Positions 22,447-51,896 of a stretch of 64,000 nt of DNA are shown here, piece after piece (position 1 is the first letter of the stretch; each line of letters begins with the position of its first letter). The position numbers were made by a program, and so were the translations under genes. The stretch covers positions 62,001 through 126,000 of the forward strand of contig NW_026250433.1 in NCBI RefSeq assembly GCF_024521635.1, in the 5' to 3' direction. The notes beneath the pieces were generated by a model. The model was not told the origin of the DNA and did not search any database. It worked only from the letters and a program-made list of their open reading frames with translations. The stretch is from Tricharina praecox (lineage: Eukaryota).

Positions 22447-23673
22447 ATGATATCGCCAAAAAACATCAACGGCCGCCGCTCAGCCGTGGTCGTCACCTTG
22501 ATAATAGTCGGCTACTTCGTCTTCACGCTGCACCGGACCCTCCTGCTCATCCCACGAGAACTCGACATCGACTTCTCGCGCCGCCAACCGCCGCTGCAGC
22601 CGTTGCCCAAGCACCCCAGCTCCGCCGGGGGGCTGCTCCCGGCCTCCGTGCTCGCCCCACCGGACACCCTACTCGACCCAACAGACCCGACCTGCGACCC
22701 ATTCACCGCGGCCTTCGTGACACTCAACCGCAGCAAGCCGATCTTCAGCACGTTCACCTCACTCTCACAGGACTGCAAGCCCTCGAGCTCGAGCTGGTTC
22801 GCGCAGCTCAAGCTGAACACCGGCGGCCCGATCGCCGCCCTGCAGAACCGCACGGTCCTGCTCGTCGGCGACAGCGTAGACCGCTTCCTGGTCGACGACA
22901 TGTGCCACCTGCTCGAGGGCAAGCTTACTATCTACCCAGTGAGCACCTACGCCTCTTCTGCGCCGGACCACCCCACCGGCGCCGGCGGCCTCCCACGTAC
23001 CTGCCAGATCTCCGGCCCCTCGGGCCTGCAAAATCTCACTCTAGCAAGCTACTTCTTCTACGGCTACGACTCGTTGGATCTGTGGCGCGACAAGACCGCC
23101 ACCTGGACCTCTCCCGCCAACTTCGCGCCCCGCTGGACCGTCTTCTCGCGCGCATACAGCACACTCTTCCACCCCGGCTCCCTCGCGGGCACGCGGCCGG
23201 ACCTAGTAATCGCCAACGTGGGCCTATGGGAGCTGGCGCGTTTCGACCGGCTACACGAGCGCGCGCACGCCGGCAGCGACGCGCCGGTAGCGCTCGACGA
23301 CGGGTTCGTGGACGCGTTCGTCGAGGGGACGGTGGACTTTCTGGCGCGGCTGCGGGCGCTGGTGGGGCCGCAGCCGCAGATACGCTGGCGGCAGATGCAT
23401 ACCCTGTGGAGTGCCGAGGGGAGCTATTTCACCGAGGCCGGGAAAAAGCAGGATAGGCAGAGGTTTAGTCCTGTTAAGGTCGCGGTGTTGAATGTGGCTG
23501 CGAGGGAGGCGGTCAATAGGGCGGGGAAGGTGGGTTGGTGGCCGGTGGGGGAAATGGTCTCGCCGTGGCCGGCGGCTTGGTGGCTTAGGGACTCGATTCA
23601 TCAGAGTGGGACGGTGGGCGCGGTTGTCTGGGGCGGGGGCGTGCTCGAGTATTTGGCCAGGACACCGAGGTAA
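22447..23673 (+). CDS. Type II membrane SGNH-hydrolase/O-acetyltransferase-like protein (Cap64/Cas3-like), intronless, 408 aa
   Basis: N-terminal TM segment AVVVTLIIVGYFVFTL, a Pro-rich stem, NRTVLLVGDSVDR (GDS nucleophile block), NVGLWEL and C-terminal DSIH (DxxH). Strong GC3 codon bias. Confidence 0.7.
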   Translation: MISPKNINGRRSAVVVTLIIVGYFVFTLHRTLLLIPRELDIDFSRRQPPLQPLPKHPSSAGGLLPASVLAPPDTLLDPTDPTCDPFTAAFVTLNRSKPIFSTFTSLSQDCKPSSSSWFAQLKLNTGGPIAALQNRTVLLVGDSVDRFLVDDMCHLLEGKLTIYPVSTYASSAPDHPTGAGGLPRTCQISGPSGLQNLTLASYFFYGYDSLDLWRDKTATWTSPANFAPRWTVFSRAYSTLFHPGSLAGTRPDLVIANVGLWELARFDRLHERAHAGSDAPVALDDGFVDAFVEGTVDFLARLRALVGPQPQIRWRQMHTLWSAEGSYFTEAGKKQDRQRFSPVKVAVLNVAAREAVNRAGKVGWWPVGEMVSPWPAAWWLRDSIHQSGTVGAVVWGGGVLEYLARTPR

Positions 23674-27478: not shown

Positions 27479-29005
27479 ATGACGACCGGAATCGATTACA
27501 ATGAAGGTGGGCACTCTACACACGTCGAGTGTTGACAGGCGCTGATCGTGATAGTTGCAAAACACAACACCCGCGCCTCCTGCTGGGTGATAATCCACAA
27601 CCAAGTTTACGATGTAACGTCGTTCCTCGACTCGCACCCGGGTGGCGCAAACATCATCCTGCGGTACGCCGGGCGCGACGCGACCGCCGAATACGATCCG
27701 ATCCACCCGCCCGGGACACTCGAGGAGACGCTGTTCGCCAGCCAGATCTTAGGGCCGGTCGACGCCTCCACCATTCCGGTGTCCACGCCCTCGACAACAA
27801 CCACATCGCAGCAAGCGGCGGAACAAGTCCCTCTGCCGCCACTGCACACGCAGCTCTCGCTCGCCGACTTCGAGAAGAGCGCAAAGAGCGTCCTCTCCCC
27901 AAAGGCGTGGGCCTACTACTCCTCCGCCGCGGACGACGAATACACCAAGGCGCACAACAACCGCGTCTTCCGCTCCGTGCTCCTGCGCCCGCGGATCTTC
28001 CGCGACGTGCTGTCCGTGGACCTATCCACGACCCTCCTGGGCACGCCCGTGCGCCTCCCGGTGTTCATCTCGCCCGCCGCCCTCGCGCGTCTCGCGCATC
28101 CCTCCGGCGAAGCGGGCATCGCCGCGGCCGCAGGCCGCGCCGGGGTGATCCAGTGCGTAAGCAACAACGCGTCTCTGCGACCGGAACAGATCAGCGCCGC
28201 CGCCACCGCGCCACTCTGGTTCCAACTCTACGTGCAGACCGACCGCACCATCAGCGAGCGGCTGCTCGCACGGATCTCCGCTCCCACCAGCGGCTACACC
28301 GCAATCGTGCTCACGCTCGACGCGCCGACGCCGGGGAAGCGCGAAGCCGACGAGCGGGTCGCGAACGTTGCAGCCGCTACCTCCGCCGCGTCCGGGCGCG
28401 GAATCGCCGGCCCCACGCCCTCGCAGGGCGAAGGCCTAGGCCGCGCACTGTTCGCCGGCACGGAGCCGTCGCTCACCTGGACCGACCTCGAGTGGCTCCG
28501 CAAGCACACGCACCTCCCCATCATCCTCAAGGGTGTGCAGACGCACGAGGACGCGCTGCTGGCGTGTGCGCCGGCTGCGCGCGCGCTGGGCGTGCGCGGG
28601 ATTATCCTGTCGAATCATGGGGGTCGCGCCGCCGATACCGCCCCGCCGCCGCTGCTGACGCTATTGGAGATTAGGAGGCATGCGCCCCAGGTGCTGGGGT
28701 TGCTCGAGGTTTATATCGATGGCGGGATTAGGCGCGGGACTGATGTGGTGAAGGCGCTGGCACTGGGTGCTAGGGCGGTGGGGATTGGGAGGCCGGCGCT
28801 TTTTGGGCTGGCTGGGTATGGGGAACAGGGCGTCGAGAGGGTGATAAAGATTCTCGAGGAGGAGGTCACTACTGCCCTCAGGCTGCTGGGCGTTAATAGT
28901 GTCCATGAGGTCGGGAGGAGACATGTTAATGCAGGCTTGCTGGTTAGGGAGATGGATGTGGATGAGGAGGGGGAGGGGCTGTGGGGGTTGAGGGCGAAGC
29001 TTTGA
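27479..29005 (+). CDS. FMN-dependent alpha-hydroxy acid dehydrogenase with N-terminal cytochrome b5 domain (flavocytochrome b2-like), 2 exons (27479-27506, 27555-29005), ~492 aa, C-terminal PTS1 AKL
   Basis: VAKHN..CWVII..VYDVT.FL..HPGG heme motif, WAYYSSAA, WFQLY, ILKG, SNHGGR, DGGIRRGTDVVKALALGA. Ends in -AKL. Confidence 0.92.
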
Positions 29006-30249: not shown

Positions 30250-31450
30250 CTATCTATCCGCCCGAATCCCCGCCTCTTGCTCGCTCGCTCTCCTTACATC
30301 TTCATCAAGAGTCCACTCCTCCTCCTGCGTATCTCGCAGGTAGTTATGTACTATGCAAGCAACGAGGAACCACAGCGCGACCTTCCGGTTGTTTTCGTCG
30401 TCCTGAACGCGGATGCTGACGGAGGTGAGAAACGGAAACCGCGCTTTCAACTGCGCGAACGTGTGTTGTATCGACACGGCCCGTTGTAAACTCAAGCTGG
30501 TGTTGAACTGCGTCTCGTCTGGAAGGTTCGCTCGGGGTGGAGGGAACGGCGGTATCATGTGCGACGTTGCCACATGGCCAACGTCGCCGATGAGGTATTC
30601 CGCGTCTGAAAAACCGCGCTGGCTCGGCGCATATCGCCGTGTGCGAGAAGACACGTGCGGCAGCGTCGTCATGGACAGCAGCACTGGTGGTGTCGCCGGT
30701 GTCTCCGGTCCGCAGCCAGATGATCCGCCGGGTATCGTCGCAGATAACGGTCGCATGCAACGCATACTTGGTGTGCTTCGTGTGGTTGAAATAATCATAG
30801 GCCCCATGCTGCGGCGGATATTTCAAGACGATGTGGGTACTGTCGATGAAGCCGACAGCATGCTCAAAGATCCCGAGAGATTTCTCGCCGATCCGGCTGC
30901 TGGTAGCCTTCCGTTCCTCTTCATTCGGCCATTTGATGAACGTCGCCGTCAACGACCGCAGCGCCTCGAGCACACGGTTGCTATAGAGCGAGATCGTGCC
31001 CTCTCCCACACCCAGTGCGGCACTGGAATCCTCGTAACTTGCACCTCCGGGGCGGCCCAGGTAGTACAGAAAGATCGCCAGCTGGTACCGCGGGTGCAGC
31101 TGTGGATGCTGCAACCCGTTCTTGAACACCTCATGATTTTCCACGAGACCACACAGGCCTCTAAACTGCTCCGGCATCATACGAAACATCATTCGGAATT
31201 TCGCACTGTCGTCGCTCCCGTAGAGCGCATCAAACCACCGATGCACAGCGTTCGCCGGCGGGATCTGCAGGTTGTTCCGTGGTGCCCAATACCGCTTCTG
31301 CTGTATTCTGTCACGGATGGCGGCTAGATCTTCGGCGAAATCGTCGGCTGTATCTTCGCTGTCGTTGAAGATTGAGTTGAAAATCCGGGTTCTGCGGATA
31401 GACGCGTCGAGCGCTCGGAGGACTTGTTTTTTCCGTGACACGCGAGGCAT
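30250..31450 (-). pseudogene. PIF/Harbinger (HARBI1/DDE_Tnp_4) transposase, frameshifted
   Basis: FRM..EQF, QLAIFLYYL, GVGEGT, IKWP, GFIDSTHI and VHD lie in one frame. After a +1 shift near 30609-30613 come YLIGD, FNTSLS..R..IQHTFAQLKARF and ACIVHNY. The catalytic E appears as Q. Confidence 0.85.
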
Positions 31451-32128
31451 GATGTTGGTGCTTTGGTGCAGTGTTCGGAATTCAGAAGCTTCTCATATTA
31501 TATAGGTAGCAACGGCTCATGGACCTATAGAGCTTCATTTTTGCTCTATTCCTATCACGGCACTCGAGGAGTCGAGGTAAGCAAATCACACCGCATTTCC
31601 CCCACACCTCCGTCTCCGCTTGGGCACGCTAAAGTCCAACAACTGCTCCTCGAACAACACCTTGAGGACCCTTACTTGGCCAACCCAACTTTCGTCAGGC
31701 GGCCCGATGTGGCTTTCCCTGCCCGGTCACGCCTACATAGTCGGGGAGTGTGGGGGAGTCAGTGTTTCCACAATGAGCAAGTGATCCGAACTGTGTATGA
31801 ACGGACTGCTACAGTCTAAGATAGACTGAATACGAGTATGATCAGACAAGACCACGATCACGATCACGACCACGACCACCACGACCAATCCTCTTCAGTA
31901 ACAAAAAAGCACAACGATTTATTCCCATCGTAAGCCGTTACAAACATCATCGTACCAAGTAGAGTAGTATGGATATATCAATCAATCAAAGAAGAAAAAA
32001 ACATCCTCAAATGCCCCGCATCCACAAAGAAAAGAAAAGAAAAGTAAAGTAAACATCAATATTTAGCGAGACCCAACATTATCGCCTCCACCATGGTGGT
32101 ATAAGAAAAATCGTAAACCACATCAAAT

Positions 32129-34102
32129 CTACTGCCTAGGCCTGGACGACGCCCTCCTGAGCCCCTCCGCCGCGGCCTCGCCAACTCTATACGCCACCTC
32201 CTGCGCGACAACATTCCTATAATCGCCTCCGCCCTCGCGACGATCATTCGAGGGTCCGCCACCGGAGATAGCTTGGCGCAACATGCCGCCGACGCCACTG
32301 CCGCGTCTGCTGCGGGTACCCGTCGCGCTGGAGCCAGAGCGCACACTCGACTCATCGTCGTGGTGTCTACGCTCGCGATGGGGGCGATGTTCGCCCTGCT
32401 CGCGGCGATGGCGCCGGCGGTTTGCGCCGTCGGCTGACCGTGCGCGCCGCTCCTCCTTGCGTTTTTGGTGCTGCCGCTCGGCCAGGGCGCCGGCCACGGT
32501 CACTGCGGCGGCTTTTGCGAGCGCCGCGCCACGAGACGTCGATCGCTGTCGTGGCGGAGACTGTGTTCTGCTGCGGCGACGGAGGATCCCGGGACGAGAC
32601 TGGGAACGCTCGCGGTGCTGCTTCGCGCGGTGAGCTGCAGCTGCAACGCCGGCAACTGCGCCGGCGCCAAGAGCTGCGTTGCGGAGCTTGTGGGAACTGC
32701 TTTCGGTGGAGGAAGTAGAGGAGGTGGATGAGGAGCGGCGGCGACGGAGGATTCCCGGGCGAGATTGGGAGCGGGCTCTGTGCGCTGCTGCGCCGAGGCC
32801 CATGGCCGCGTTACGCACCCGGTGGTGGCCGCCGGCTGAAGTTGTGGAGGAGGCCGATGAAGAGCGGGAGCGCGAGCCGCGGCGGCGGCGGTCGTGTATC
32901 ACTTTGGCTGCGATGCCGGCGGCCGTGGCGGCACCCACTCCGGCAGCGACTTTACGCCCGCGGTGCGTGCTACGTCCATCGTCCGAGTCATAATCGGAAG
33001 AGACGGATCCGCGGCGGCGACGCTCAGCGTACTTGTGTGCTGTTAGTCCTGCGGCCGTGGCGCCAAGTGCCGCTGCGGCGACGTGGCGGCCCATGTGTGA
33101 TCTAGCACCACCCTCGCCGTCGGATGAGCTCGCCGAACGAGAGCGGGCCCGTCGTCTGCGGTGGTCGTAAAGTTCCTTTGCAGCCCCCGCAGCGGCGATT
33201 CCCAGACCGGCTTGGGCAAGGTGACGAACACGACGGTTGGGGTCGTCGTCTGGGTGTCCGGGGTGTCCGGGATGTCGCATATGTTCTTGTTGGTGCTCCC
33301 GGTGGTGCTCGTACAATCTCTGGGCACCTATCGTTCCAGCGCCGGCCTCAGCAACCCGGCGGATACGGTGGTGTCCTCCCCGGCTGGCACGGCTTTCACT
33401 GTCCGAGGATGAGGCCGATCCCGAGCGACGATGACGGCGGTAGAGCTGTTGTGCTCCGAGAGCTACGGCTCCGCCTTCAACGATGTGTCGGACAGGGTGT
33501 GATGAGTGTGACGAGCCCGCATGTGATCCGACGTGCGATCCGGCGTGTGACTCGGGATGACCTTGGTACATCGGCCCAGGTGACCGGCGCACCCTCCTTC
33601 GCTGACCGGCGACCAGAGATCCGGCACCCACCACACGCCCGGCCATACCGCCACGTCTCGATCCATATGCAGATCCATCCTCGTGGTAATATTCCTCCCC
33701 ATCACACGACGAGCAATACGAATCGTAGTCGTAGTCGTCATACCCCACGCTCCTCGCCCTGCCCCTCCGCTCTCTCTCCCGCTCGAAAGCCATCTCGCTG
33801 TGTCCGCCGCTGCGGCGATAATACCGCCTAACGCCGCCATGCTGCATACCGCCCGCCGGCTCTATCACGTATTCCCGTTCGCGGATGAGCTCTACCTCCT
33901 GCGGAGGAAGCTGGATGATGTGGTCTTGGTGGATTACCAGCGGGGACCGTGGCCGCTCGTATTCTACACGATGTGGGGGCAGGTCGATTACGGATGAGGA
34001 CTGGTTGCTCGAGATTTCGATTAGGCGCTCGCGCTCGATGTAGTGCTTTGGGCGGCGCATCGAGGGGGGAATGAGCATCTCGTCGTCGAGAACTACCGGC
34101 AT
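32129..34102 (-). CDS. Arg/His/Ser-rich, largely disordered protein with repeated AAAG.GA blocks (DUF3824-like), 657 aa
   Basis: Single long ATG ORF. Repeated units such as HRVRNAAMGLGAAA and HKLRNAALGAGAVAG are separated by RRRSSSSS tracts. The family assignment is by resemblance only. Confidence 0.7.
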   Translation of the reverse strand: MPVVLDDEMLIPPSMRRPKHYIERERLIEISSNQSSSVIDLPPHRVEYERPRSPLVIHQDHIIQLPPQEVELIREREYVIEPAGGMQHGGVRRYYRRSGGHSEMAFERERERRGRARSVGYDDYDYDSYCSSCDGEEYYHEDGSAYGSRRGGMAGRVVGAGSLVAGQRRRVRRSPGPMYQGHPESHAGSHVGSHAGSSHSSHPVRHIVEGGAVALGAQQLYRRHRRSGSASSSDSESRASRGGHHRIRRVAEAGAGTIGAQRLYEHHREHQQEHMRHPGHPGHPDDDPNRRVRHLAQAGLGIAAAGAAKELYDHRRRRARSRSASSSDGEGGARSHMGRHVAAAALGATAAGLTAHKYAERRRRGSVSSDYDSDDGRSTHRGRKVAAGVGAATAAGIAAKVIHDRRRRGSRSRSSSASSTTSAGGHHRVRNAAMGLGAAAHRARSQSRPGILRRRRSSSTSSTSSTESSSHKLRNAALGAGAVAGVAAAAHRAKQHRERSQSRPGILRRRSRTQSPPRQRSTSRGAALAKAAAVTVAGALAERQHQKRKEERRARSADGANRRRHRREQGEHRPHRERRHHDDESSVRSGSSATGTRSRRGSGVGGMLRQAISGGGPSNDRREGGGDYRNVVAQEVAYRVGEAAAEGLRRASSRPRQ

Positions 34103-36414
34103 GTTTGCGGGAGTTGTGGGAGTTGAAAGTGTTGGATGTGTTGCGGTCTAGTGTTCGTGTGAAGATGTGCGATATGTAATAGCGATCTTCGTTCGGTCAG
34201 ATATTTATATAGCTGTGGTAGTTGTGGCGGTGGAGGAGATGGAGGAGATGGTGAGGATAGCAGTGTTGTTGATGTTGCAGTCGACGCTGATAACTGGGGC
34301 CGGGAGTAGGATGATGTGAAGGAGGAAACACAAGATATGAGGGCGAGCGGGGGGTGGATAAGGGGCAGGACGGCCTCCTACTGACCAATATCCCGAGGGC
34401 AGTGTACCTCCACCAGACCGAGCATCTTGACGAGGCGGACGGGTTTCGCAGGTGCTGCCTGCCTGGCTGTCTGGCTGCATCTGGTGACGTTTGTGTTTCC
34501 GTTTCCAAGTCTTGTCAGCACGGCGCGGATCCGGCCACGATCCCTGTCGATGATGCTCCCGTACATGCGGCGCGCTGCGTCATCGTGCGGGGACACTGCC
34601 ACAGCATTCGAGAATCCTCCAACAAAAACGACGGGCGGAAGTGCGGACGGTTAATGTGACGAAAGACTTCAGCTTGGGCTGCGGAGAGCAGAGCAGGTTT
34701 GGAGGGCGGAGGTGGGAGGAGGCCCCATGTAGATACTTGGTGGCCCATGTAGGTAGGTTGGTATGGCACTTATTACCCTGGAGAAGAAGGGAAAGAAGGA
34801 CGTGATGATCCCCCATGACGATCGCTCTGCATCGGAAGGCACGGTCGCTGTGGAGTACCAAGGTACCCAGGGGAGCTGCTTACTAGTATAGTCGGCCCGT
34901 AGAGGCACGCTCGGCCGGCGGACCGAGGCCCAACAGTCGGAAAACGTCCACAGGACTGTGGGCTCGAGACCAGCCTCTTGCACTGCCATCTTCCACAGCT
35001 TCCACAGATTCCGCAAGCCCGCCGCGATCTCCCAAAAGAAAAACCCCCAGGCCGGCTGTCGTTCGCGAACACGCAAAGAAAATCTATACCAAAGGGCTGC
35101 AAGCCCCTCACCTCTCAACGATCCGTTTGCTACGCGGACGCCGATTATTGGCGGCCCTCGACTCCTCGCTCTAGAAACACATATCTAGGCAACTCCTGAG
35201 CAGTGAGAACTCGAGTCACGGCCGCAGCAGCAGCAGCAGCGCAGAAATGGGAGCGCATACAGCGATACGATACGGTATGCAGTCAACTGCGTGCGTGCAC
35301 TTTGTTTCCTTCGCATTCGCTGTGTGGTCGGGTCTCATGACGGGCTGACAGGCCGGATTGGCACGTGCTATGCTATGTGGTATCCTTGCCCCGCTGTCGC
35401 TGCAGGTGGGGATTCGCGAGAACATGAGGAAGTGTAGAGTACGGTATGATATTGGATGAGGGGAGAAATTCTACGGCGGATGGCACTTCTAGACTCCAGA
35501 ATATTCGTCCCCATACAGTATCGGGAACACTCCGTTATTGGTTACAATTTTATCCCCAGTAGTTACCCACTGTGTGATCGAGTCTCAGCACAGAATCCAG
35601 AGCTTCGCTGTCATCTCTGTGCGTGCTCGCGATCTCGGCTCCTCCAAGCTCATCCGCCCTGGTCGGAGTAAGGCTACTAGTACTGGGGACGGGGTAAAAC
35701 CCACTACATGCCTCCCCGCGGTCGACGTTCATCCAGGCGGTACATACCAGAATCTCAAGCACTTGCCAGCCGCGCACAGCACAATCACACTCACAGCCAC
35801 CAGAGTTGGCGTGCGACTGTGATACTCCAGAAGCAATACGCGATGTGGACAATCGATCAATCAAAGGTCTGTGGGTGCGTCCACGGCCCCCGGCACAAAT
35901 TACAATCCCTTCGCCTCAGGAGTCAGGATTGAAGCTGGGTGCACTGCAGGATTGATGGATTTACGGGATGTGGGGTGAGAGCGGTAGAGACTGTACATAC
36001 TTGGGCCAAGTCTTAGCTACATACCTTTGGAAGAGATCGAACGAAGACTGTCCTGCGACGCAAAAACTCAAGATATCGAGTGACATCGCATGCATAGATC
36101 TCGAACCGATGACACTCTTCAGGCCATATGTCGACATCGACATCGACATTACCGGGTACCTGAAAGGGGCCATTGAACGAGGACTTTGATTTAGCCGCAA
36201 CCTCAATAGCTTTCCATTCTACATCAACACTCATCCCGGGCTTCTGCGAAGAAGCCCCATAATATCTCCGAGTGAGTCACAGCGGATGATCTGCAGGACC
36301 TCGTATACCTATATCCGCTTCTATCCCAAGTTCCATCATCACCCGCGTGGGGCATATAAATACCCGCCAGCCCAGCAGGCCAGTGGCCAGACCTCTATCG
36401 CCTCGTACCCACCA

Positions 36415-39236: not shown

Positions 39237-41439
39237 CGTCGAATCGATACCGCTGTGTACACCTAGTCCAGGCACCGGACTGCAGAGCTTTATAGGTGTC
39301 GTGCATTCACTCGAGCATGGTATTACCTACATACCCAGTCCACGAGACCGCATTGATTGCGACGGTTAGAGAGTAGAGTGGCGAACCCCATCGTAGGACA
39401 TTGCCGGATTGTATTGGCCTCCAATAAACGTTGGTGGGGAGCAGCCGAGTGTGCAAGTGTGAAACGGTCGCCACCGTAGAGTACCTGCCTTGGCCCGGCC
39501 TCGAGCTCCTCCTCCGATTGCCGGAATCCTGAATGTGCGACTGGATTGCTCGGGGAATGGAGCATGCACATCCTTCGTCCGTATGGAAATTGGTATATAG
39601 GAGTACGTATACTCTAGTACTGCCGGTATATAGCTGCCCTCAGGGAGTCCAGGCGCTTCCAAACTCCGACGGTGCGGAATGATACTTCCTGATCGTCGGA
39701 TCTTATTTAGGCGCCCTCCACACATGTCGCCTGCCTCACGGGCCACGACCGCGCCCCACCCCTTCAAACGAAACTCCGCCAAACTTCCCCAATCGACGTC
39801 GCGCAATGCCCCGCCACAAAATCCTTGCCCACGGGAATTAACTGCATACGGCATCGGTTCCACCCGTTCGATTCAACGGCCTGCGGACCTGGCGGTGCGC
39901 CCCGCAAATTTGGACCCTAGCCGGAAATGGGGGGCTGCAAGATAACCGTGGATTTAGAATAGAGTACATGGAGTGGATTTGCGCCTGCGGGGTACATATC
40001 TCCCCGGCCGTTGAGATGCTTGCAGGAGGTTGTAGGCGTTGATCTTGCTATAATAAACACATAGAAAGTAGGTACCGGTGGTTAGGAGTTGCTGGAAGGA
40101 GATATATAGAATTTTACTCTCGGTGCAATGGCGTTGCGTGCATACCGTATGGTGGGTAGATATTGTCCGGCCAGTTCTTACAGGAGAGCAGAGTCCATCA
40201 CCACCGAAATCCGGTCAATTTCGTGGCCCTGTCCTGTCCGTCCGGTCGACGCCGCTTTTCTGTTCTGACAAAGCTTTAGTAAGTGTAACTGTGATCTAGC
40301 GATTGCGGCGTCTTCGAGTCGGAGAGCCGAGTAATATACGTACCTAGCTGAGGAGGCGAGCGATTAAGCTTAATTATCGACGATTTCCAATTTTCGAGAG
40401 GTGTAAGTGGACCGTGGGAAGTGAAGCGCACACGCTCCCAACAGCCCTCAGCTTTAGCCCGACTGCTACCTATGTAGGCAGTGACAGTAGGTATTCTGGA
40501 GATGCTTGGACTGCTCCAACCATGTAGCCCGCCGGAAGGCTGCTCAGACCGGCAAGCCTAAGCGGCGGCCGCCCGGCTGTTGTGCGGGTTTTTGGGAACA
40601 CTGGCTACCCATGATAAAATCCGGCTCTAAATCCTTCTAAAGCTTTTTAAAATCCTTGTGATGACTTTCACTTCCGATTGGGGTTGGTGGGGAGAGCGGG
40701 TTGATTGGGATGGCCACAACCCACCGGCATTTCCGAAGGCCGGTGGTGGGTTTTGATAGGAATTGTAAAGGTAGTCCGAGGGGATGGTAAAAGATGTAGT
40801 GGTGGTAGTACTAGCATGTCCTAGGACTTCTGTATTCTTGGAATATACATGTTGGCTGTACCTCAATGGCTGTTAATAACCTCAAGTATATCTGCAGAAC
40901 CCATTGAAGCGTATTTTCCTCTTGCCGGGAGCGCATCACAGCCGCTCACTCTAGCCTCACCTCACGACCCATCGCCGTGGCATTTGCGAACCTTTTTCCG
41001 CATATCTACCCTCCAGCATTAGCTCGCCAAACAGTTCTCCCCAAAAGCCGATCTCCATCCAGCTTCCCGAGGCGCGACAGTTATCCGAGTACCCAAGTGA
41101 CCACGCACGAAGCGAACTCACATCAACATCGTGATTCATATCCTAGCTAAGTGCCTGACCTGCCTCCCACTATTTACCGTGTCTATGTAGATGCGTGAAA
41201 TATTTCCCTCTATGTAAAAGCGCGCCCTTAGCCCACCCTTCGCCCGACCGACCGCCCCGAACCCGTCTGCATAAGTAAACAAAAGATAAGAAAACCCGAA
41301 AATCCCATGGTATCAAAGTACATACAACATCGCGCCAAACACAAGCATAAACACAAACACAGCCACAAACAACACAAGACCGAGATAAATGCCCGAAAAA
41401 AAAGAAGAAAAAATCAAACGCCCGGCCCGTCCCTACGTC

Positions 41440-42768
41440 CTACAGCATCCCGCCGAGGACCTCCCTCGCGACGCCGCCGACCTCTCGCTTGACGCCGTTC
41501 CTCACCGCCTCCTCCCACTCCCTCACGGTGCCAGAAACGACTATCCTTCGGATCTTCGCGTCGGCCTTGAGGAACAGCTCGCCGACGCCGGGGCCGCAGA
41601 GGTTGGGCCCATTGACCAGGCTGAGCACGCGGCTGTACACGTCGATGAGGACGTCGCACAGCGTCGCGAAGGTTTCGAAGTAGTCGGGATCGAACGGGAG
41701 CGCGGGCGTCGCGAGGTACATGTACTCCTCGCCCGGAATGCCGCCCATGGGCGCGGCGGGGAGCGATATCGGCAGCGGAGGTACCGTGTCCTCGCCCGGG
41801 TATGTCGGCGCCGAGATGGTCGGGCCGGACATCGAAGAGTTGCTCGAGCTCCGCGTTCGCTCCAGGCCTAGTGGATCCGGCAGCGACGTGTTCGCCGCTG
41901 AGCTCCCCCGCCGCTGCTTCACAGTGTGCCCTGACCGGTGGAAGAATTTGGGAAGGCTCATGCTGCGCAGTGTTGAATTCCCGCCGCCGCCTCCGTTGCC
42001 GCTTCCGAGGGATATACTCGACGAGTGCGCGCGCGTGGTGAGTTGTCTCGAGGGCGGCAGCGCGATGTGTGTCTCGTACTCTTGCAGGAGCGCATTGAAA
42101 GCGCGCAGGTAGTCGAGGGGGCTCGTCGCGCCGAGCTCGAGGATGCTGGGGAGCGAATTGCCAAGCATGAAGAAGTTTGTCGCCTTCTTCTGTAGCTTCT
42201 TGACGTCGGGGTAGACGAGTTTTTGCAGATCGGCGCGGGGCGTCAGCATCACATTGAAGAAATAAACGCGACCTTCGTGGGCGCGCCGCAGGTAGTCGAG
42301 CGTCGCAATGCGCTTCGTACACGTCTCCTGCACCGTCACGTAGAGTCCGTTGGGGCTCGTGGGCGCGGCGGGGATCGAGCCCATACCGCTCGACGTGGGG
42401 ATCGGCGGCGCCATGCCGGTGTTTGTTCTGGCGAACATCTTTGTTTGCGAGCCGCTCGGCGTCCGAGGATGCGACAACTTGAGGGAGAAAGTGCTGGCGG
42501 CGGACGACGTCAGGTCGGATATTGTCGACGGCGCCGAATTGGAGCTGGTGAGCGAAGGACGACGGGACAGCGGACGACTTCCACTCGACGGTTGCCGCGA
42601 CAGACTGAAGTAGCTTCCTAGGCCTCCGCCGCCGGACGAGGGTGCGGACGTTATTTCGTCGGGAGTTTGCGCGGTATGGACGGACAGCCCCTGAGCGATG
42701 TAGTGTGGAGTAGCGGAGACGGAAGCCTTCCTCTCGCGCATGCTGTTTGAGATTGATGAGGGCAACAT
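41440..42768 (-). CDS. Conserved fungal hypothetical protein, ~442 aa
   Basis: Long GC3-biased ORF with a Ser-rich N-terminus and ordered blocks KRIATLDYLRRAHEGRVYFFN and LPFDPDYFETFATLCDVLIDVY. Divergent from ECT1. The first ATG is at 42768. Confidence 0.8.
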   Translation of the reverse strand: MLPSSISNSMRERKASVSATPHYIAQGLSVHTAQTPDEITSAPSSGGGGLGSYFSLSRQPSSGSRPLSRRPSLTSSNSAPSTISDLTSSAASTFSLKLSHPRTPSGSQTKMFARTNTGMAPPIPTSSGMGSIPAAPTSPNGLYVTVQETCTKRIATLDYLRRAHEGRVYFFNVMLTPRADLQKLVYPDVKKLQKKATNFFMLGNSLPSILELGATSPLDYLRAFNALLQEYETHIALPPSRQLTTRAHSSSISLGSGNGGGGGNSTLRSMSLPKFFHRSGHTVKQRRGSSAANTSLPDPLGLERTRSSSNSSMSGPTISAPTYPGEDTVPPLPISLPAAPMGGIPGEEYMYLATPALPFDPDYFETFATLCDVLIDVYSRVLSLVNGPNLCGPGVGELFLKADAKIRRIVVSGTVREWEEAVRNGVKREVGGVAREVLGGML

Positions 42769-43627
42769 GGCTGTGTGGGATGGGTGGCTATCTATTTCGC
42801 TTGTCCACACCGTCACTTCTCCGTCGCACCCCGAATTGGGCTGATGTTGGAGGTTTGATGCAAGTATCCAGGCCGGGGGGGATATGCAGGAGAGGCGTTG
42901 GAGGTTGTAGTAGCGGTGGTGGGGTTCGGGGGAAGTGAGGTGAGCGTCGCACGGGAGGGGGAGGCTAAGGCAGCGTGGGTGCTAGTAGTGGTGATACTCG
43001 TTGTGGTGGGGATGGGCGAATGGGGGGTTGGGTGGGATGGAGTGTGTTGGTTGGTCGGTTGGTTGGCGATGGAGGCGGCGCGGTGGTGGTGGTGATGATG
43101 ATGACGGTGGTTGGAGAGTTGGAGAGTTGGACGCCGTTTCTTTTGGGGTACGGTAGTTGGGAGAATGTGCTTGTGTGTAATCTACATACACATGCATAGG
43201 CACGACGGCACATGATAGGTAGGGCAACATCGCTCCCGAACTTCATGAAGACTTCTGGACAGCGTGAAGAGTGTTGCCCCTGAAGCTGTCTCTTCTGGGA
43301 ATAGCGTCGGCGAATTAAAGGATGGTGGCCGAAGGTCGAATTGAACACGCATACCGAAGTGCGTGTGTACGCTTCCCCCACCAAAACCCGTTAACAAGCA
43401 AACAACTTCACCCACCATCATCTTCGAAACCAACATCCACACCACCGCCACCGACTCAATTCACCGCTCATCGACCCAAAATCGCGTGACGAACCAAACA
43501 ACCTTCGGAGCCTTCTAGCCTTAATCGCAAACTTCAGCAAACACGAGCTCTCAAAACCCAAGCTTTCAAACCTACCTCCCACCTCCCACCTCCCACCTCA
43601 ACCTTACGCGCTCGCAAACTCTCCACG

Positions 43628-44883
43628 ATGGCGGACGAGCTTCCAAAACACCCACCCCAGGTGGCCATCCCCATGGACGACAAGCGCATCTGGATCGATG
43701 GCTGCTTCGACTTTACGCACCACGGTATGTACATAGATACCAACCCCAGCTTCCCAGATCCCGCACCCCTTTCCCACCTCGGAGCTGACTATGACCCCTC
43801 ACAGGCCACGCTGGCGCCATGCTGCAAGCCAAGCGTCTCGGAAACTACCTATGCGTGGGCACGCACAGCGACGAGGAGATCCTAGCGAACAAGGGGCCGA
43901 CGGTGATGTCGCTGGCGGAGCGGATCCTGGCGGTCTCCGCGTGCCGCTGGGCGAACCTTCCTGTGCCGGGCGCGCCCTACGTCACCGACCCCGCGTGGAT
44001 GGATCTGTACGGGTGTCGCTTCGTAGTGCACGGCGACGACGTGACGACCGACGCGTCGGGCGAGGACTGCTACCGCATCGTCAAGAGCGCGGGGCGCTTC
44101 CGGATCGTGAAACGGACGCCTGGCATCAGCACTACCGATCTCGTCGGCCGCATGCTGCTATGCACCAAGACGCACCACATTAAGGACTTGGGCGCGCTGC
44201 TGCTCGGCAAGGACGGCGAGGACATGCTCGAGATGATGCGCAACTACGCGAGCGATGAGTTTGGCGCCGTGGGCCGTGGTCCCCCCGTGTTGGAGTACAT
44301 GCCGACGGCGCCGCGCAGCTGCCGGACACTCGTGCACGGCCTGATGCCCGCCATGGGCCGCAGGATCATCTACGTCGACGGCGGCTTCGACCTCTTCACT
44401 CCCGGGCACATCGAGTTCCTGCGCCTGGTCAAGAAGGAGGCGACGGCGGCCGGCGAGAGCGAACCGTACATCGTTGCCGGGCTGCACAGCGACCGCGTTA
44501 TCAACTACTGGAAGGGGCTTAATTATCCCATCATGTCGTTGTTTGAGCGGGCGATGTGTGTGCTGCAGTGCCGCTTCATCGACGCCCTCGTGCTCGAGGC
44601 GCCGTTCATTCCCGACGCCGAGTTCCTGGACGCCATCGGCGAGACGTTCGGCGGCGAGCTCGAGGCGGTCTACCACGGCCCCACCGCCTTTATGGAGGGC
44701 GAGGAGGACACCTACCAGGAGGCCAAGGAGCGCGGCATCTACCGAGAAGTCGGCTCTCACCGCTGGGCAGACGTCAACGCGGGTGTCATTGTCCGACGGA
44801 TCCTGAACGAGCGCGAACGCTACGAGGAGCGCCAACGGAAGAAGGGCTTCAAGGCGGAAATGGAGGTCGTCATGACAAACTAG
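43628..44883 (+). CDS. ECT1: Ethanolamine-phosphate cytidylyltransferase, 2 exons (43628-43724, 43805-44883), ~391 aa
   Basis: Two cytidylyltransferase domains: WIDGCFDFTHHGHAGA..RTPGISTTDLVGRML and YVDGGFDLFTPGHIEFL..NYPIMSLFER. Confidence 0.95.
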
Positions 44884-45274: not shown

Positions 45275-46016
45275 TCACTCGCGCATCACCACCACCCCCA
45301 CCACGAGCACATACACCCCCACCGCCAGCAACCCCACCCACCCGGCCCTACCCACGCGCACACCCCTACCTACCCCAGCAGTCTTCTCCCCTCCCCCCTC
45401 TCCCCGCACATCCGCCCCAATCGGCGCGCCCTGCACCCCCGTCGGCACCCCCTCTCCCCCGGCCGCTGTAACCACGTAGTTCTCATACCCCCCCTCCCCC
45501 CCACCATCCCCCTCCAACGGCCCCCCGCCAGGCACACACCCCCTCACCGCGCACCTGGAGCCCCAGGGACAACACCCGCCATTTGCGGCGGCGGGGCAGG
45601 GGTATGTTCCTTGTGGACACTGCAGGTACAGTCGTTCACCGCCGGCGCCGTCCTCGTTGTGGGAGGAGTAGTCGGCGCCGCAGGGTGGTGCAATGCAGCA
45701 GAATACGCCCGCTAGCGAGTGGGTGGTTGCGGTGCAGGTGTGGGAGGGGGGGCAGCAGATTTCCTGGATGGGTGGAGGGTTAGCTTGAAGCTGGAGGGGG
45801 AGCGTGAGGGGCAGGAGGGGTGGGGGGAGGGGGGCAGCTGGAGGGGGAGTGGGGAGGGGGAGAGGGAAAGGGATGGGGGGCAGACTGGGGAAGTGGGGAG
45901 AAGGGGGGGAAGGGGGGCGTACAGCGTGGCCCAGGGAAGAGCAGGAGGAGCTATTGGCTGGACACTCCGGTTCGGGCTCGGGTTCGAGTTCGGGCTTAGG
46001 CTCAAGCTCAGGTTCA

Positions 46017-46049
<33 letters not shown>

Positions 46050-46312
46050 GGGAGTGCTGAGCGGGGGAGTAGGGCGTGGTGGTGGCGGTGACGGTGGATG
46101 TGTGGTGGTGGGAGGAGCGGGAGAAGCGGTTTGTAGCCTAGATTGTTCAGGTTGGCGGGGGTGCGGTGGGTGAAGATGGGCGCGGGCGTGGGCGCCGTGG
46201 GCGCCGTGCTCGTGGTTGTGATGGCGGTGCTGAGGGTGATGAGGGTGCTGAGGGTGCTGAGGGTGCTGAGGGTGCTGAGGAAAAGCGAGAGAATAGCGAG
46301 TGGTGGGAGCAT
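45275..46312 (-). CDS. Secreted Cys-rich protein with C-terminal hydrophobic (GPI/TM) anchor; intron 45922-45764, ~292 aa
   Basis: Signal peptide, (EP)n tract, CP..C..ICCP..C..FCC and CP..CPAAANGGCCP.G..C motifs, and a hydrophobic tail. The Pro-rich insert in the track ORF is a 159-nt in-frame intron (GTACGC..GCTAAC..CAG). Confidence 0.75.
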
Positions 46313-46466
46313 TGCTGGCTAACAATGTTGACGGATGAATGGGCGGTGTGAAGGTGATGTTGGAACTTGGAACGAGGGATGAGGTACAAGGCTGGGGGCG
46401 AGATTCATGGTCTATCACGCGTGTTGCTACGACACCAGGTATCACTCTTTAAATCCACTTGCCCAC

Positions 46467-46501: not shown

Positions 46502-47087
46502 GTTCACCCGCTCACTTCACGACACCATTCACACCATTCACACCCGAAAAGACCACCTCGATGATGCATCAATCATTACTATTAAACCTAGAGAATGCCA
46601 TCATACGGTAGATGATGATACTGATACAACTTCCGGAACCGCACAACATCCATATCCACAGCAGCTCGCCAGTCAGCCAGTCATCTGTCCTATCCTGTCC
46701 ATCCAAACCAAACCAAACATCAACCCCAAATCCAATCCCCCCGCCTTATTCACACCAAAAACGAAAGGCAGAAATTGTAAGAGTATACAAACAAAAACGA
46801 CTGGTATCAATCAAAATGCCAAACAGCTACCAGATAGGTACAAAAAAAACCGACAAGCCGCATCTCTAACCACAGCGGAAAAATCTCCACGAGAAAAAAA
46901 AAAGGCCCCCTCCCACCCCCACCCCAGCCCCCCCGAAAATGCAGGAAAAAACGTAGAAACAATGCAGATATCAAAAAACTCCGTTAAAGAAACACCCCTC
47001 CGAGTTCGCCAAGAAAGTGTGGGCAAAAAAAATGATAATGAAAAAGTGAAAGACAAAAAGAGAATGATTCCAAAACATAGGTCGATA

Positions 47088-49688
47088 TTACGTAGCCGAA
47101 GTTTTATTCTTGAACAATGCCTCGAGCTCTTTGCTCACGGGAGCTTGTCCCTGATTCCACTCCTCGACAGCCTCCTTTGTTGAGCGGATCGCGGTGGAGG
47201 AGGGCGCGGCGTCCTCGTTGCCTATCCTGGCCCGCTTGTCCAGTCCCTGTGGTGGGCTGCTTCCTCCTCCGCCTCCCCTATACGTGCGCTCCGAAGTCGA
47301 ATTTCTCGCATCGCCGACCATCCTGCCTCCTACCGGCCCGAGCTCCGGGGTGGACAAGAGATCCCGCCAAGACCATGACGAACCTTTGAAGGGTAGCCAT
47401 TCGACGCCCACGGTTGGATGTTTGAGGAGCATCGTGATGTCAGTGATCAATTGTTTTCCGGAGGTGCCGAGTGATCCGTTTTCCGGATGGTGGTGGTGGG
47501 GGGGATGGGAATGGATTCGTGCTACTAGAGCAGAGATGAACGGTCTCAGCATGGCACGGAAGAAGCGGGCCATATCTTGTGTCTCGGGAAGAGCACTCAG
47601 GTCGTCGATGATGCGCGAAACCCTATCCAAGAGGCCCTCGTTGTGACGGAGCTCGGCAGAACCCTCCGGCTGAAGCGAAAGATGCAGCAACACGGTTACC
47701 GCAGCGGCAAAGAACACACCCAGCACCGCACGACATGAGCGAACATCTCGAACGTCGGAATCGTGATCAACAAAAACTGCTAGCGGCGAGGTGTTGGAAG
47801 AGGACAGTGATATCGGTGCCACAAGGGCGTGGACGTGACTAAGTGCATTGATGGCTGCGTCGATGCAGCCTTCCGCGTACTGCAGGTCATCCAGCTCGTT
47901 CTTGCGACTGCCAGCTGCAGTCTCCCGTCGAGATTGAGCCGTGTCGCGTGGGAGATCTCCTCGTTCAATGGCACGGATGAGCGGGAACCGAGACAGCAAT
48001 ATTATCGAGCCAAAGTATTCGATGTGCGTGAGTCTTATGTTGGCTTTCTGAAGCGCATCGTTATTGATATCAAACGTCGATGAGTCCGGAATGAAGGTTC
48101 GGGGCTGCGCGCGATACCACGTGTACAGGATCGAGAGTCTCGCGGCGATATTGGCCTCCGCTGGGTCCGGAGAGGAAGGGTGCAAGGGAGACAGGTGTGG
48201 GAACAGGTTCTCCCACAGCAACTGCGTCAATCTTATCAAGTCGGTAGCAACTTTTGAATCATTTGGACGGGAGCGTGCGAATATGGCCTGCTGCGCTGTC
48301 AGATTTTACCCTCCCACCCCGAAATGTGAGGGGAATAATGTGTAACCTACATTGACCGGACTCTGGCCTCCAGAACCGGAGGAAGGTCCACTGGGCGAAG
48401 AAATACGGCTGAAGCCGATACTCCTCTTGCGGCCTCCGAGGTGCGCACTCACCCAAGGCGGTAGCTCCACGCCGTTGCCCGACGCTATCGATCCTGTCCT
48501 CGATCTCGATGACGGTTGCGGAGGAAACGGTTGCGGCGGCACAATTTCACCCCGGAGCGAAGTGATATCGACCGCGGTGTGCACATAACCCGACTCCTTC
48601 GAGACCGACTCGCCCAGCACCCACCGAATCGAACCGTCGGAGAGTACAAAGCGGTATTCCATACGCCTCGTCTTGCCGTCCACGAGGCGAATATTATGGC
48701 TCACACGTTCCCTATCCTGATAGTGAACCGCACCGACCCACCCAGGATCCATCTCCACCGCCATCCGGCTGAGACCCGAAACCTCCAAGAACCTGTCGTT
48801 GAAGAAGTAATCCGTGATTCCATCATTCGTCGTGGCGGCCATGATGCCGACAGGCAACAGGTTGATATGCGACACCGAACCGTCCCGTTCCTGGACCTGT
48901 ATGGCATCCGTCGACCTCGAGCCGAAATGATCTAAGGTCGCCCTCAAAGTAGTCTCGACGGCAGCTCTGCGTCCCATCTCCGCCTCCAATCGCAAGTTCT
49001 TCTGCTGAAGCATAGCAAGAACCATAGGTTGATCCTCCGGCTTCCCAAACACCTTCCCACTTGTGGCCTCCTCGGCGGGTGTTACGTGCGAATGCGACCG
49101 GCAAATCCTCTGAAACACATCCTCCAAACCGTCTTTCGCGAAGACATTCAAGTTGTACCCGCAGAGCAATGCGGCATCCTTCCCCGCAAGGAACGTTTCC
49201 CAGACCTCCTCGAGCTCATGTGCCTGCTCGTGCTCACCGTTTTCGCAGAGGATGTTGACCAACTCCCCGTAAACCAGCAGTCTCGGATAGCGCTTCTGCA
49301 GCTTCTGGAAGAGCGGCGTGAAGAAGTCGAAGAATATCTTTTCCTCCACCTTCCCATTGGGCATCAGCTGTTTCAGGATGACTTCGGCTGGCGCGAGAAA
49401 CATCTGCTCTCTTTTCCGCAACAGCTCGGGCACCAGGTTCTGTTGTCGCAGATACAGATCGAGTGCCTCGAGATGGGCTTTCGTCGCCACGATGACGGCG
49501 GCATGCTCATTGCTGAAGAAACTCGGGAGGATAAAGCTCGAAATTGCGTCGAAGAGGGAGTCCTCGCCGTTGTAGAACTGAATCAGATGCTCATTTGGAC
49601 TGCGCGGATGGTTGTGATTATGGTGGGCATGGTGGTGGTGGCCGTGGCTATGTGGTTGAGGAGTGCCCGCTGGGCGAGCTGGAGGCAT
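47088..49688 (-). CDS. MEDS + coiled coil + PAS domain protein fused to a fungal transcription-factor middle-homology-like region, 2 exons (49688-48351, 48290-47088), ~846 aa
   Basis: MEDS-like HLIQFY..VIVATKAH..YGELVNILC..ELEEVW..LLCGY..ICRSHSHV. PAS-like NDRFLEVSG..WVGAVHYQDRERV..EYRFVLSDGSIRWV..DIT. A phase-0 intron GTAGGT..CTGAC..CAG links the two ORFs with no stop. The C-part (L..WY..P, IEYFGSIILLSRFP, CIDAA, FFAAAVTVLL) resembles fungal_TF_MHR. Confidence 0.8.
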
Positions 49689-51896
49689 TTGTCGGGCTGC
49701 GTGCTTTTTTGTTGTGTTATCGTTGTTATTGTTGTTGTTGTCGTCTAGGCGGGGGTGGAGAGTAGAAGTTGTTCGGGAGAACCGGCGATACGGAGGGGAG
49801 GAGGCCACGAAGTGACGGACAAAGGTAGGAGATAAAATGTAATAAAGTGGGAGATAAATTTGGGTGGGCGCCTTTGAGGGTGATGTTAAGTGGGCTGGAT
49901 CCTGGCACGCAAATCAAGTGGCAGGCAGGCGTTGGAGGAGTGGTATAATGGGAGTTGAGCGAAGGCGAGTGGAGGGAGAATTGGGGATAGGCACGTAGGT
50001 AGGCTTTAGGTAACCTTCGCCTTGCAGGATTCCAGGAAGGAGCCGAGAACAGCGGCCGGGGGAGAGGCTAAATGAACCGCGATCCACCAACGCCACACAG
50101 CACATGCAAGCCCCCACCACTACCGGCCGTATTGAGAACTCGGAGGCAACGCTTTAGGACGGATTGACGCTTTCGGCCCGCTGCGTGTGCAACAAATTTT
50201 ACGGGTTTGCTGTTTCGGTGGCAGAAGCGGCTCGACAGAAGCGCTGGACGAGTATCCGAAGAAAGTATGTGCTCTAGATGGCGACTGCAGGGCGGCCCGG
50301 GTCTCCGGGGTTGGTGGTGTGGGTGGTGGTGGCGACGGTGGTGGTGGTGGTATACCGTGTTGGTAGTTGTTATTGTTATTGTTGTTGTTGTGGTGGTGGT
50401 GGTGGTGGTAGAGGTGGAGGTGGGCGATGGCGGTTGTGATGGTGGTTGACGGTAGTGGTAGTTAAGGGCGTGTGTGGCCTGGGCGAACCCTCTCGTGGCT
50501 GGAGACGAAGGCTGAAGCGGGTGGGCCAGGGAAGGCAGGCAGACAGACAGGCGACCCACAACGGGGAATTGGAAGAGGGAAAGCTCTGCACAGTACTTGG
50601 AGTACTGTCGAAGGGGTTTATGCAGCCAAGTAAGCAAATAAATGGGTACTTGAGTTGCTTGTAGAGAAAGGATGTGTGGTAGTAGAGGGGCACACGGTAG
50701 CTAAGGGAGCTGGTGTGAGGTATCAACGTAGGAAGCAGAGAAAAGAACGAAAGAAGCGCCTTCTGGCTTCATATGTTGATGGGTTATTGGGTATCTAGGG
50801 CCGGCGAATCGAACGACAAACTGTACCAGGCCAGTAGGTACTCTGGGTAGGCAAATAGAGTACGTAAGAAGTGCTTGGGTATGTACCCGCGATCAGTTCC
50901 GAGCCGGGTAGGATGTATGCCGTCACTCTCCAGAGCACAGACCAAAAAAGACGGACGGGCGGGCAGGCGGGCGAACGTCTGTTTCTCCTCCTTTCAATCG
51001 GTTATTGGGGTTGCACGCAGCCCGAGTTTTCCGCGTGGCCGCCGGCGTGTCACCAACTTCCTTGGGAATCGATTGACGCCGCTGGACGAACGCAGCGAGC
51101 GAGAGCGGGCGAGCACGAGGCTACGCCCTCCTCTTCGGGCTTTGTATGTAGAGTAGACCTTGGCTACTCTCTCTGCCTGGCGTCTCGCTCTCCGTCCGGC
51201 GTCTCCTTGCTCCTCTCCGTCCAGCGTCTCCCTTGTTCTTCTCCGTCCGGCGTCTTCCTTGCTCCCTCTCCCTCTCCCTCTCCCTCCTCCCTCGCTGCCT
51301 CCATCCCCAATCCCCTCTCCTCCTCCCTCGTTCTCGCCTGGCCTTTCCCCCTCCTTCTCCCCCTCCTCCTCCTCCTCCCCTCTCCTCTGCGCGCATGCGT
51401 GGATCGCTAGATGGCGGCAGAGCGACACACACTTGACACACACATCCACTAGCTCGCCGAATCACCGCCGAAACGACAGCCAGCCAACCGAGCCATCCTC
51501 AGTCACGTTCCACCGCCCTAGATGCACCACTCAGCGGCTCAGCTGTGTCTTGGTAGCGAATAATTCCTTTTTTACTTCCGCTCTTGAACACAGCTACATG
51601 TGCTCTTCGCAATGCCTGTCTCCCCCAACCACTGCTGTGCCTCGCTCTGGCAAGCGACACCCCCTCTGTACGCATCCTCTGCAATCATCGCGAGTCTTTT
51701 TTTTTTTGCCAACAGCCAGTCGAAGATGCGACGCGCGCCTGCGGTGTGGCCTCCTTGCTTTTGGCTTCGCTGTACGCTGAATTAGGGATGCCGCCCGTAA
51801 CGTTACAGTAACGTAATGTCACGTATCTAATGTTATGTTATATTACAGTAAAGCATGAGTCGTGACGGTAACGTTACTGCCAAGGCGCTAGTAGTA

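Follow-up and report, generated by a model that had tools for sequence, protein, structure and literature searches.

Closest described systems and the fungal protein

MEDS domains (PF14417) are treated as a prokaryotic signalling part in the searchable papers. They are classed as "iKaiC", an inactivated KaiC-like domain, in the accessible portion of PMC5847659. Bacteria and archaea carry them in histidine kinases of the MEDS-(PAS/GAF)-kinase layout, and they also occur in regulators that work without a kinase. In Mycobacterium NBB4, EtnR2 (MEDS only) and EtnR1 (GAF and a PucR-type helix-turn-helix) are both needed for the response to ethylene oxide, and EtnR2 presumably works via EtnR1, which is a separate DNA-binding protein, as far as described in the accessible portion of PMC11197473. 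Here we describe a gene of the fungus Tricharina praecox that joins a MEDS-helix-PAS sensor module to an all-helical domain resembling the middle homology region (MHR) of zinc-cluster transcription factors. It lies on the minus strand of a 64,000-nucleotide stretch (contig NW_026250433.1, positions 62,001 to 126,000), called the window below; all positions refer to this window. Searches of the literature on MEDS/PF14417 returned prokaryotic work only and no description of a fungal MEDS protein. A term search in the main text of a study from 2026, which deals with gene transfer in pyrophilous fungi and includes T. praecox, found no reference to MEDS, PAS domains, histidine kinases or sensors (PMC12773724).

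The fungal protein and the bacterial and archaeal kinases (P0034, P0035, P0011) have in common a MEDS domain, about 30% identical and alike in its invariant residues, and behind it the MLQQ..E..R linker helix; PAS domains are a further shared part in the case of P0035. In contrast to these kinases, it is a spliced, eukaryotic protein without HisKA and HATPase_c that carries the helical MHR-like domain instead. The role proposed for it would resemble that of EtnR2/EtnR1 and of DcmR from Methylobacterium, MEDS proteins that regulate transcription without a kinase according to the accessible portion of PMC11197473. As described there, EtnR2 is made up of MEDS alone, DcmR has a helix-turn-helix, and neither of them contains a PAS or MHR-like domain, unlike the fungal protein. 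By analogy, the EtnR2/EtnR1 pair offers a precedent for kinase-free MEDS signalling via a separate DNA-binding partner.

The second half of the protein can be compared with Gal4-type Zn2Cys6 factors, whose MHR (PF04082; structure solved for Cep3 in the CBF3 complex, 6f07 and 6p7v) is likewise all-helical and of similar size. Factors of this type combine the MHR with an activation domain. The helical domain, the disordered tail and the terminal acidic-hydrophobic motif of the fungal protein recall this layout, whereas it has no Zn2Cys6 cluster and no Pfam match in this half, and the MEDS-helix-PAS module takes the place of the N-terminal DNA-binding/dimerisation part. Regulation by binding another zinc-cluster factor has precedents in zinc-cluster-family proteins such as Dal81/TamA, whose action does not depend on their DNA-binding domain, and in AflS, the co-activator of AflR. 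None of these is known to carry a MEDS or PAS sensor.

Gene model and transcripts

The protein is encoded by a real, expressed two-exon gene of T. praecox that runs on the minus strand from an ATG at 49688 to a TAA stop at 47090-47088. Contigs from four public runs (X1 to X4) were placed on positions 47000-49900. X1 and X2, two runs from two studies whose RNA nature is our guess, each gave one contig (3795 nt at depth 204 and 3820 nt at depth 142, respectively), and both contigs span all of 47000-49900 apart from a skip of the same 63 letters. The skip ends in CT..AC on the plus strand, which corresponds to GT..AG on the gene strand, so that the intron is placed at 48350-48288 and the start of exon 2 at 48287. 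The first-pass annotation of this DNA had joined the two open reading frames into one gene spliced in phase 0, which the contigs and an identical public model bear out. Its intron of about 60 nt (48350-48291) is found in no contig and was rejected; the true acceptor lies 3 nt further downstream, and the product has 845 rather than about 846 residues. Letter for letter, this product is the same as XP_051335754.1/KAI5844105.1 (P0050), "hypothetical protein BZA05DRAFT_448469 [Tricharina praecox]", and the public model already contains the 63-nt splice.

The intron site is common to the relatives of the gene. A Pyronema-like metagenome protein (P0006) has a read-through insert of 16 residues exactly at this site, which the Pyronema models do not have, and many metagenome relatives break there into exon-1-only forms of about 445 residues and exon-2-only forms of about 370-430 residues.

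At their outer ends, the X1 and X2 contigs reach about 900 nt past 49900 and 57 nt past 47000. Provided that the extension on the minus strand, from 49901 to about 50800, follows the genome without a break, a leader of about 1.1 kb precedes the ATG. This region holds long, low-complexity, coding-like repeats whose frames contain N, T, H and P runs, and it could be a long 5′ untranslated region, belong to an overlapping transcript or include an upstream intron. An overlooked upstream exon is unlikely, as the start of the gene coincides with that of the annotated orthologues.

Short, near-identical pieces of the gene (47466-47641 and 49118-49258) were also present in X3, a seawater metatranscriptome. 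One of them has adapter-like flanks, and library carry-over seems more likely than a marine source. The contigs of X4 contained no piece of the gene from the stretch 47000-49900.

Sensor half: MEDS, linker helix and PAS

Exon 1 (protein P0001) encodes a MEDS domain, a linker helix and a PAS domain, in the order in which the first-pass annotation had read them. MEDS is matched at residues 34-192 with an E-value of 1.4e-17 (64.4 bits against a cut-off of 29.8), covering profile positions 2-157 of 161, and PAS_3 (PF08447) is matched at residues 295-358 with an E-value of 6.5e-8 (33.2 bits against a cut-off of 25.6). Both families score above the Pfam cut-offs in all six orthologues scanned. The PAS assignment combines the score above the gathering cut-off with a PAS fold in the model. 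The MEDS part of the model has a KaiC/RecA-like α/β fold, and a motif scan of the protein found no Walker A motif.

The AlphaFold2 model of exon 1 was built from a 23-row alignment (A5) and reached a mean predicted local distance difference test score (pLDDT) of 77.0 and a predicted template modelling score (pTM) of 0.58. The coiled linker quoted in the first-pass annotation (residues 227-245) falls within a 41-residue helix that extends from 217 to 257 in this model. In sensor kinases, a helix of this kind usually forms a dimeric coiled coil. With Foldseek, the model had 194 matches in the PDB at E<=0.001; all 50 matches listed are PAS or LOV domains, and the top ones are Brucella LOV-PAS-histidine kinase constructs that are matched together with the preceding helix. 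VIA-align against 48,161 representative chains recovered both domains, with residues 27/30-236 resembling KaiC-type proteins of the RecA superfamily. The modelled KaiC-like fold without a Walker A motif agrees with the "iKaiC" class as given in the accessible portion of PMC5847659. Since MEDS is an inactivated KaiC-like domain, the term "hydrocarbon sensor" describes a hypothesis rather than an established property. A LOV photoreceptor was rejected despite the LOV domains among the matches, as the PAS sequence contains zero cysteines.

In 23 fungal and bacterial-type sequences, E142, V144, L147, E160, W163, L174, C176, Y178, H199 and P204 are invariant, and so are the linker residues L227, Q228, Q229 and E237. 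Because the invariant residues span both parts in fungal and bacterial-type sequences, MEDS and the following helix travel as one module. A disordered linker of about 70 residues then separates the PAS domain from the helical domain.

The kinase parts that usually complete such a protein in prokaryotes are missing, as the first-pass annotation had stated for the H-box and HATPase. HisKA and HATPase_c have no Pfam match in the protein at E<=1 and none at E<=10 in six of six orthologues, and no H-box-like motif (HE[LIMV][RK]xP) was found in the motif scan. At the same thresholds, neither the protein nor any of the six orthologues matches a DNA-binding Pfam domain. The N-terminal zinc cluster of Gal4-type factors (CX2CX6CX5-12CX2CX6-9C), which had been reported absent from the gene and its upstream region, does not occur in six frames of the whole 64-kb window, a scan that a pattern split by an intron would escape. 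CX2CX6C is likewise found in none of the 19 family sequences, and the T. praecox protein has only five scattered cysteines (148, 176, 196, 587 and 631).

Helical C-terminal domain and tail

The exon-2 protein (P0002) was used as the query for the C-terminal half. AlphaFold2 (18-row alignment) models its residues 1-320 as a confident all-helical domain (mean pLDDT 71.7, pTM 0.71) and the part from residue 322 on as a disordered tail. When the model was compared with the 48,161 chains by VIA-align, the two Cep3-containing entries ranked first and third. The match covers the whole C-terminal domain and corresponds to Cep3 residues 125..544. In an ESM Atlas search with residues 1-320, 26 of the 30 named neighbours are Ascomycota clusters of Fungal_trans (PF04082) with lengths of about 310-330 residues. 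The best neighbour has a score of 0.95 with 180 of 256 shared features, and the share of Pfam-assigned members within the clusters is 19-73%. Similar Fungal_trans neighbours were returned with the whole exon-2 protein. The C-terminal domain and the MHR are probably related, though with strong divergence; we infer this homology from remote evidence, and "MHR-like" is the better term.

The disordered tail holds two short motifs. A basic KRx[RK] motif (KRAR in T. praecox) is present within the last 150 residues of all 19 family sequences, and alignments A2 and A3 show an invariant R353 next to a K352 that hardly varies. It may serve as a nuclear localisation signal. EL[EQ]ALF is found near the C-terminus in nine of the 19 sequences (Tricharina, Geopyxis and Rhizina, not Pyronema, Tuber, Choiromyces and Morchella) and is a candidate docking or activation motif.

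His-rich tracts occur on the minus strand at the N-terminus (residues ~12-27; 49600-49660) and within the C-terminal domain (47490-47520). The N-terminal tract is also found in Pyronema and is not present in Geopyxis, Tuber and Morchella. Metal binding and mere low complexity are both candidate readings of these tracts.

Family distribution and descent

The architecture is conserved across the class Pezizomycetes. Named full-length proteins with MEDS and PAS_3 (781-868 residues) are found, besides T. praecox, in Pyronema domesticum, P. omphalodes, Geopyxis carbonaria, Rhizina undulata, Choiromyces venosus, Tuber aestivum and Morchella importuna. Their public labels are "hypothetical", "uncharacterized", "unnamed protein product" or "PAS domain-containing". 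Exon 1 of the window gene is 66% identical to that of Pyronema, 57% to Geopyxis, 49% to Morchella, 47% to Rhizina and 45% to Tuber and Choiromyces. As far as seen, the family is found in Pezizomycetes only; the word-index searches are no proof that other fungi lack it.

A maximum-likelihood tree was calculated from 21 rows, with near-duplicates and partial sequences (P0006, P0018, P0021, P0023, P0026, P0027, P0030, P0032) and PAS-only matches (P0012-P0017) omitted. The fungal clade has a support of 96/97. Tuber with Choiromyces and Pyronema with Tricharina and Geopyxis form subgroups; Morchella joins the former, and Rhizina joins the latter (94/88). These groupings fit the accepted taxonomy of the Pezizomycetes. 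Because the tree groups the named species by family, vertical descent within the class looks likely, and the gene looks old. The first-pass annotation had suspected a horizontally acquired module and had held that an architecture already widespread, characterised and vertically inherited in fungi would speak against its proposal. Two parts of this apply, as the architecture is widespread in one class and its descent looks vertical; the third does not, as the family is uncharacterised.

Sister to the fungal clade (99/98) is P0033, a 413-residue fragment from a 1798-bp contig with the layout MEDS (C-terminal part)-linker-PAS-HisKA, which shares 33% identity with the window protein across 289 residues. 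The bacterial-type kinases P0034, P0035 and P0011, only about 30% identical, stand further out on long branches, and these joins may be unreliable. The candidate stretches scanned in the prokaryote genome collection included no relative of P0033. In metagenomes, P0033 had a single match (L002), confined to its HisKA part, and in prokaryote genomes P0034 matched one locus (L001), again with the kinase part only. P0033 may represent the kinase ancestor of the fungal family. The evidence fits a history in which an ancestor of the Pezizomycetes possessed or gained a MEDS-PAS kinase, the transmitter of this kinase was swapped for the MHR-like domain, and the gene was then passed on vertically.

Proposed mechanism and alternatives

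We give roughly even chances to the reading that the protein is a signal-responsive nuclear co-regulator without a DNA-binding domain, in which the MEDS-helix-PAS module is joined to the MHR-like domain. The module would have been taken over from a MEDS-PAS histidine kinase and would perceive a small molecule or a partner protein. This could then change the state of the MHR-like domain. After nuclear entry by the KRxR motif, the protein might bind or sequester a DNA-binding factor or the transcription machinery; since it has no DNA-binding domain, it would act as a co-regulator through other factors. We infer the nuclear location, the partner and the signal together with the MHR homology. A complex prediction between residues 30-385 and the C-terminal domain (1-320), run without alignments or controls, gave scores of 0.00 and 0.00 against a mark of 0.34 and speaks neither for nor against contact between the two halves.

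A number of results weigh against a nuclear co-regulator of this kind, among them the profile tests of its helical domain. Exon 2 matches no Pfam family at E<=1, and Fungal_trans is matched at E<=10 by none of six full-length orthologues and none of ten C-terminal sequences. A phmmer search with P0002 against 1.84 billion representatives returned eight proteins at E<=0.001, all from the family (six strong and two weak, P0040 and P0041, both of which align with it). A profile of the ten C-terminal sequences (A2), run against 8000 word-sharing candidates, found eight family members at E<=10 and no Pfam domain. Foldseek with the C-terminal model gave no PDB match at E<=0.001, and the ESM neighbours are leads without an alignment. 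Furthermore, the neighbouring genes give no functional hint (13 flanking frames scanned). The first-pass annotation had likened the output to the C-terminal half of the MHR and had suggested a check with profiles of all three domains. MEDS and PAS_3 passed this check and Fungal_trans did not; the likeness to the MHR persists in the Cep3 match and the ESM neighbours, fails in every profile test, and extends over the whole domain instead of its C-terminal half. The A2 profile was also run against PDB sequences, where the best of six matches at E<=10 (0.0031, a capsid protein over about 48 residues) was judged to be noise.

In an alternative reading, the C-terminal domain would be a helical scaffold that only Pezizomycetes have and that has no kinship with MHRs. 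The protein would then act in the cytoplasm as a signalling adaptor, perhaps within a KaiC-like or partner-switching network, and not as a transcription co-regulator. We regard this as rather unlikely, although it is the most serious alternative: entries with Cep3 rank first and third among all chains compared, most of the named language-model neighbours are Ascomycota Fungal_trans clusters, and the presence of the basic KRxR motif in every family member fits nuclear import. A protein that binds DNA by itself, as a true one-component transcription factor, would need an unrecognised element, for which the basic stretches of the disordered linker and tail (KRAR among them) come into question, and the bacterial MEDS protein DcmR is reported to be a stand-alone regulator with a helix-turn-helix (accessible portion of PMC11197473). 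This appears quite improbable, as neither the protein nor the six orthologues have a DNA-binding Pfam domain, the zinc-cluster pattern is missing from the 19 family sequences and from every frame of the window, and the basic patches sit in low-confidence, disordered segments. We attach the least weight to a decaying histidine kinase relic without present function. The kinase output is indeed missing, and the closest outside relative, P0033, still has its HisKA. On the other hand, the reading frame is intact, the same architecture is kept in nine named Pezizomycetes species, exon 1 shares 45-66% identity with its named orthologues, the C-terminal domain is conserved too, and spliced transcripts occur in two runs; we consider a relic highly improbable.

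The nuclear co-regulator can be extended to a more far-reaching scenario, in which the input half of a MEDS-PAS kinase of prokaryotic type was captured by an ancestral member of the Pezizomycetes and wired to the regulatory domain of the fungal zinc-cluster factors. This would make it the first one-component regulator based on MEDS in a eukaryote. It would sense a small volatile in the nucleus, such as ethylene, an epoxide or a product of pyrolysis, and would control gene expression through zinc-cluster partners in post-fire fungi, morels and truffles. We consider this scenario unlikely as a whole.

The gene, whose model is public but unnamed, unites a sensor module known from prokaryotes with an output that is eukaryotic and new. 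A whole fungal class keeps and expresses this MEDS-PAS module, joined to a domain that resembles the regulatory core of the largest family of fungal transcription factors but has no DNA-binding part. If the co-regulator reading is true, the question of what MEDS (inactivated KaiC) domains sense could be addressed in a eukaryote, with Pyronema as a tractable host, and the gene provides an example of an MHR driven by a foreign sensor. It would also be a candidate receptor for signals in fungi that matter ecologically and economically, namely post-fire fungi, morels and truffles. Should the C-terminal domain turn out not to be an MHR, the protein is still an uncharacterised, conserved signalling protein, albeit of narrower interest.

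Coordinates and surrounding frames

Table 1. Parts of the MEDS-PAS gene and nearby frames in the window.
Feature	Positions	Strand	Description	Basis
Coding exon 1	49688-48351	-	446 codons; His-rich N-terminal tail, MEDS, linker helix, PAS, start of Ser/Pro/Gly-rich disordered linker	Open reading frame and sequence; spliced contigs of X1 and X2; start as in annotated orthologues
Intron	48350-48288	-	63 nt, phase 0, GT..AG, in-frame TAA inside	
Coding exon 2	48287-47088	-	399 codons and stop; helical MHR-like domain and disordered tail	
MEDS domain	49113..49589	-	Residues 34-192; inactivated KaiC/RecA-like fold, no Walker A	
Linker helix	48918..49040	-	Residues 217-257; conserved MLQQK..LE.E..RR motif	AlphaFold2
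PAS domain	48549..48911	-	Structural extent residues 260-380; PAS_3 at 295-358; no LOV-type cysteine motif	
All-helical C-terminal domain	47331..48287	-	Residues ~447-765; like the MHR of zinc-cluster factors	
KRAR basic motif	47226..47237	-	Residues 797-800, disordered tail; candidate nuclear localisation signal	
ELEALF motif	47112..47129	-	7 residues from C-terminus; candidate docking or activation motif	
Cytochrome b2 / L-lactate dehydrogenase-type frame	27536-29005	+	FMN-dependent dehydrogenase and cytochrome b5 domains	E 1.8e-112
Cytidylyltransferase-like frame	43795-44883	+		E 5.3e-21
Frame without Pfam family	41414-42981	-	One of five frames of 347-672 codons	No family at E<=0.001
Frame without Pfam family	45275-46318	-	As above	No family at E<=0.001
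Frame without Pfam family	32129-34147	-	As above	No family at E<=0.001
Frame without Pfam family	30344-31492	-	As above	No family at E<=0.001
Frame without Pfam family	22134-23456	+	As above	No family at E<=0.001

The 13 flanking frames extend from 22134 to 55765, and 11 of them have no Pfam family. The cytochrome b2-like and the cytidylyltransferase-like frame, which show no evident link to the MEDS-PAS gene, are ordinary housekeeping genes.

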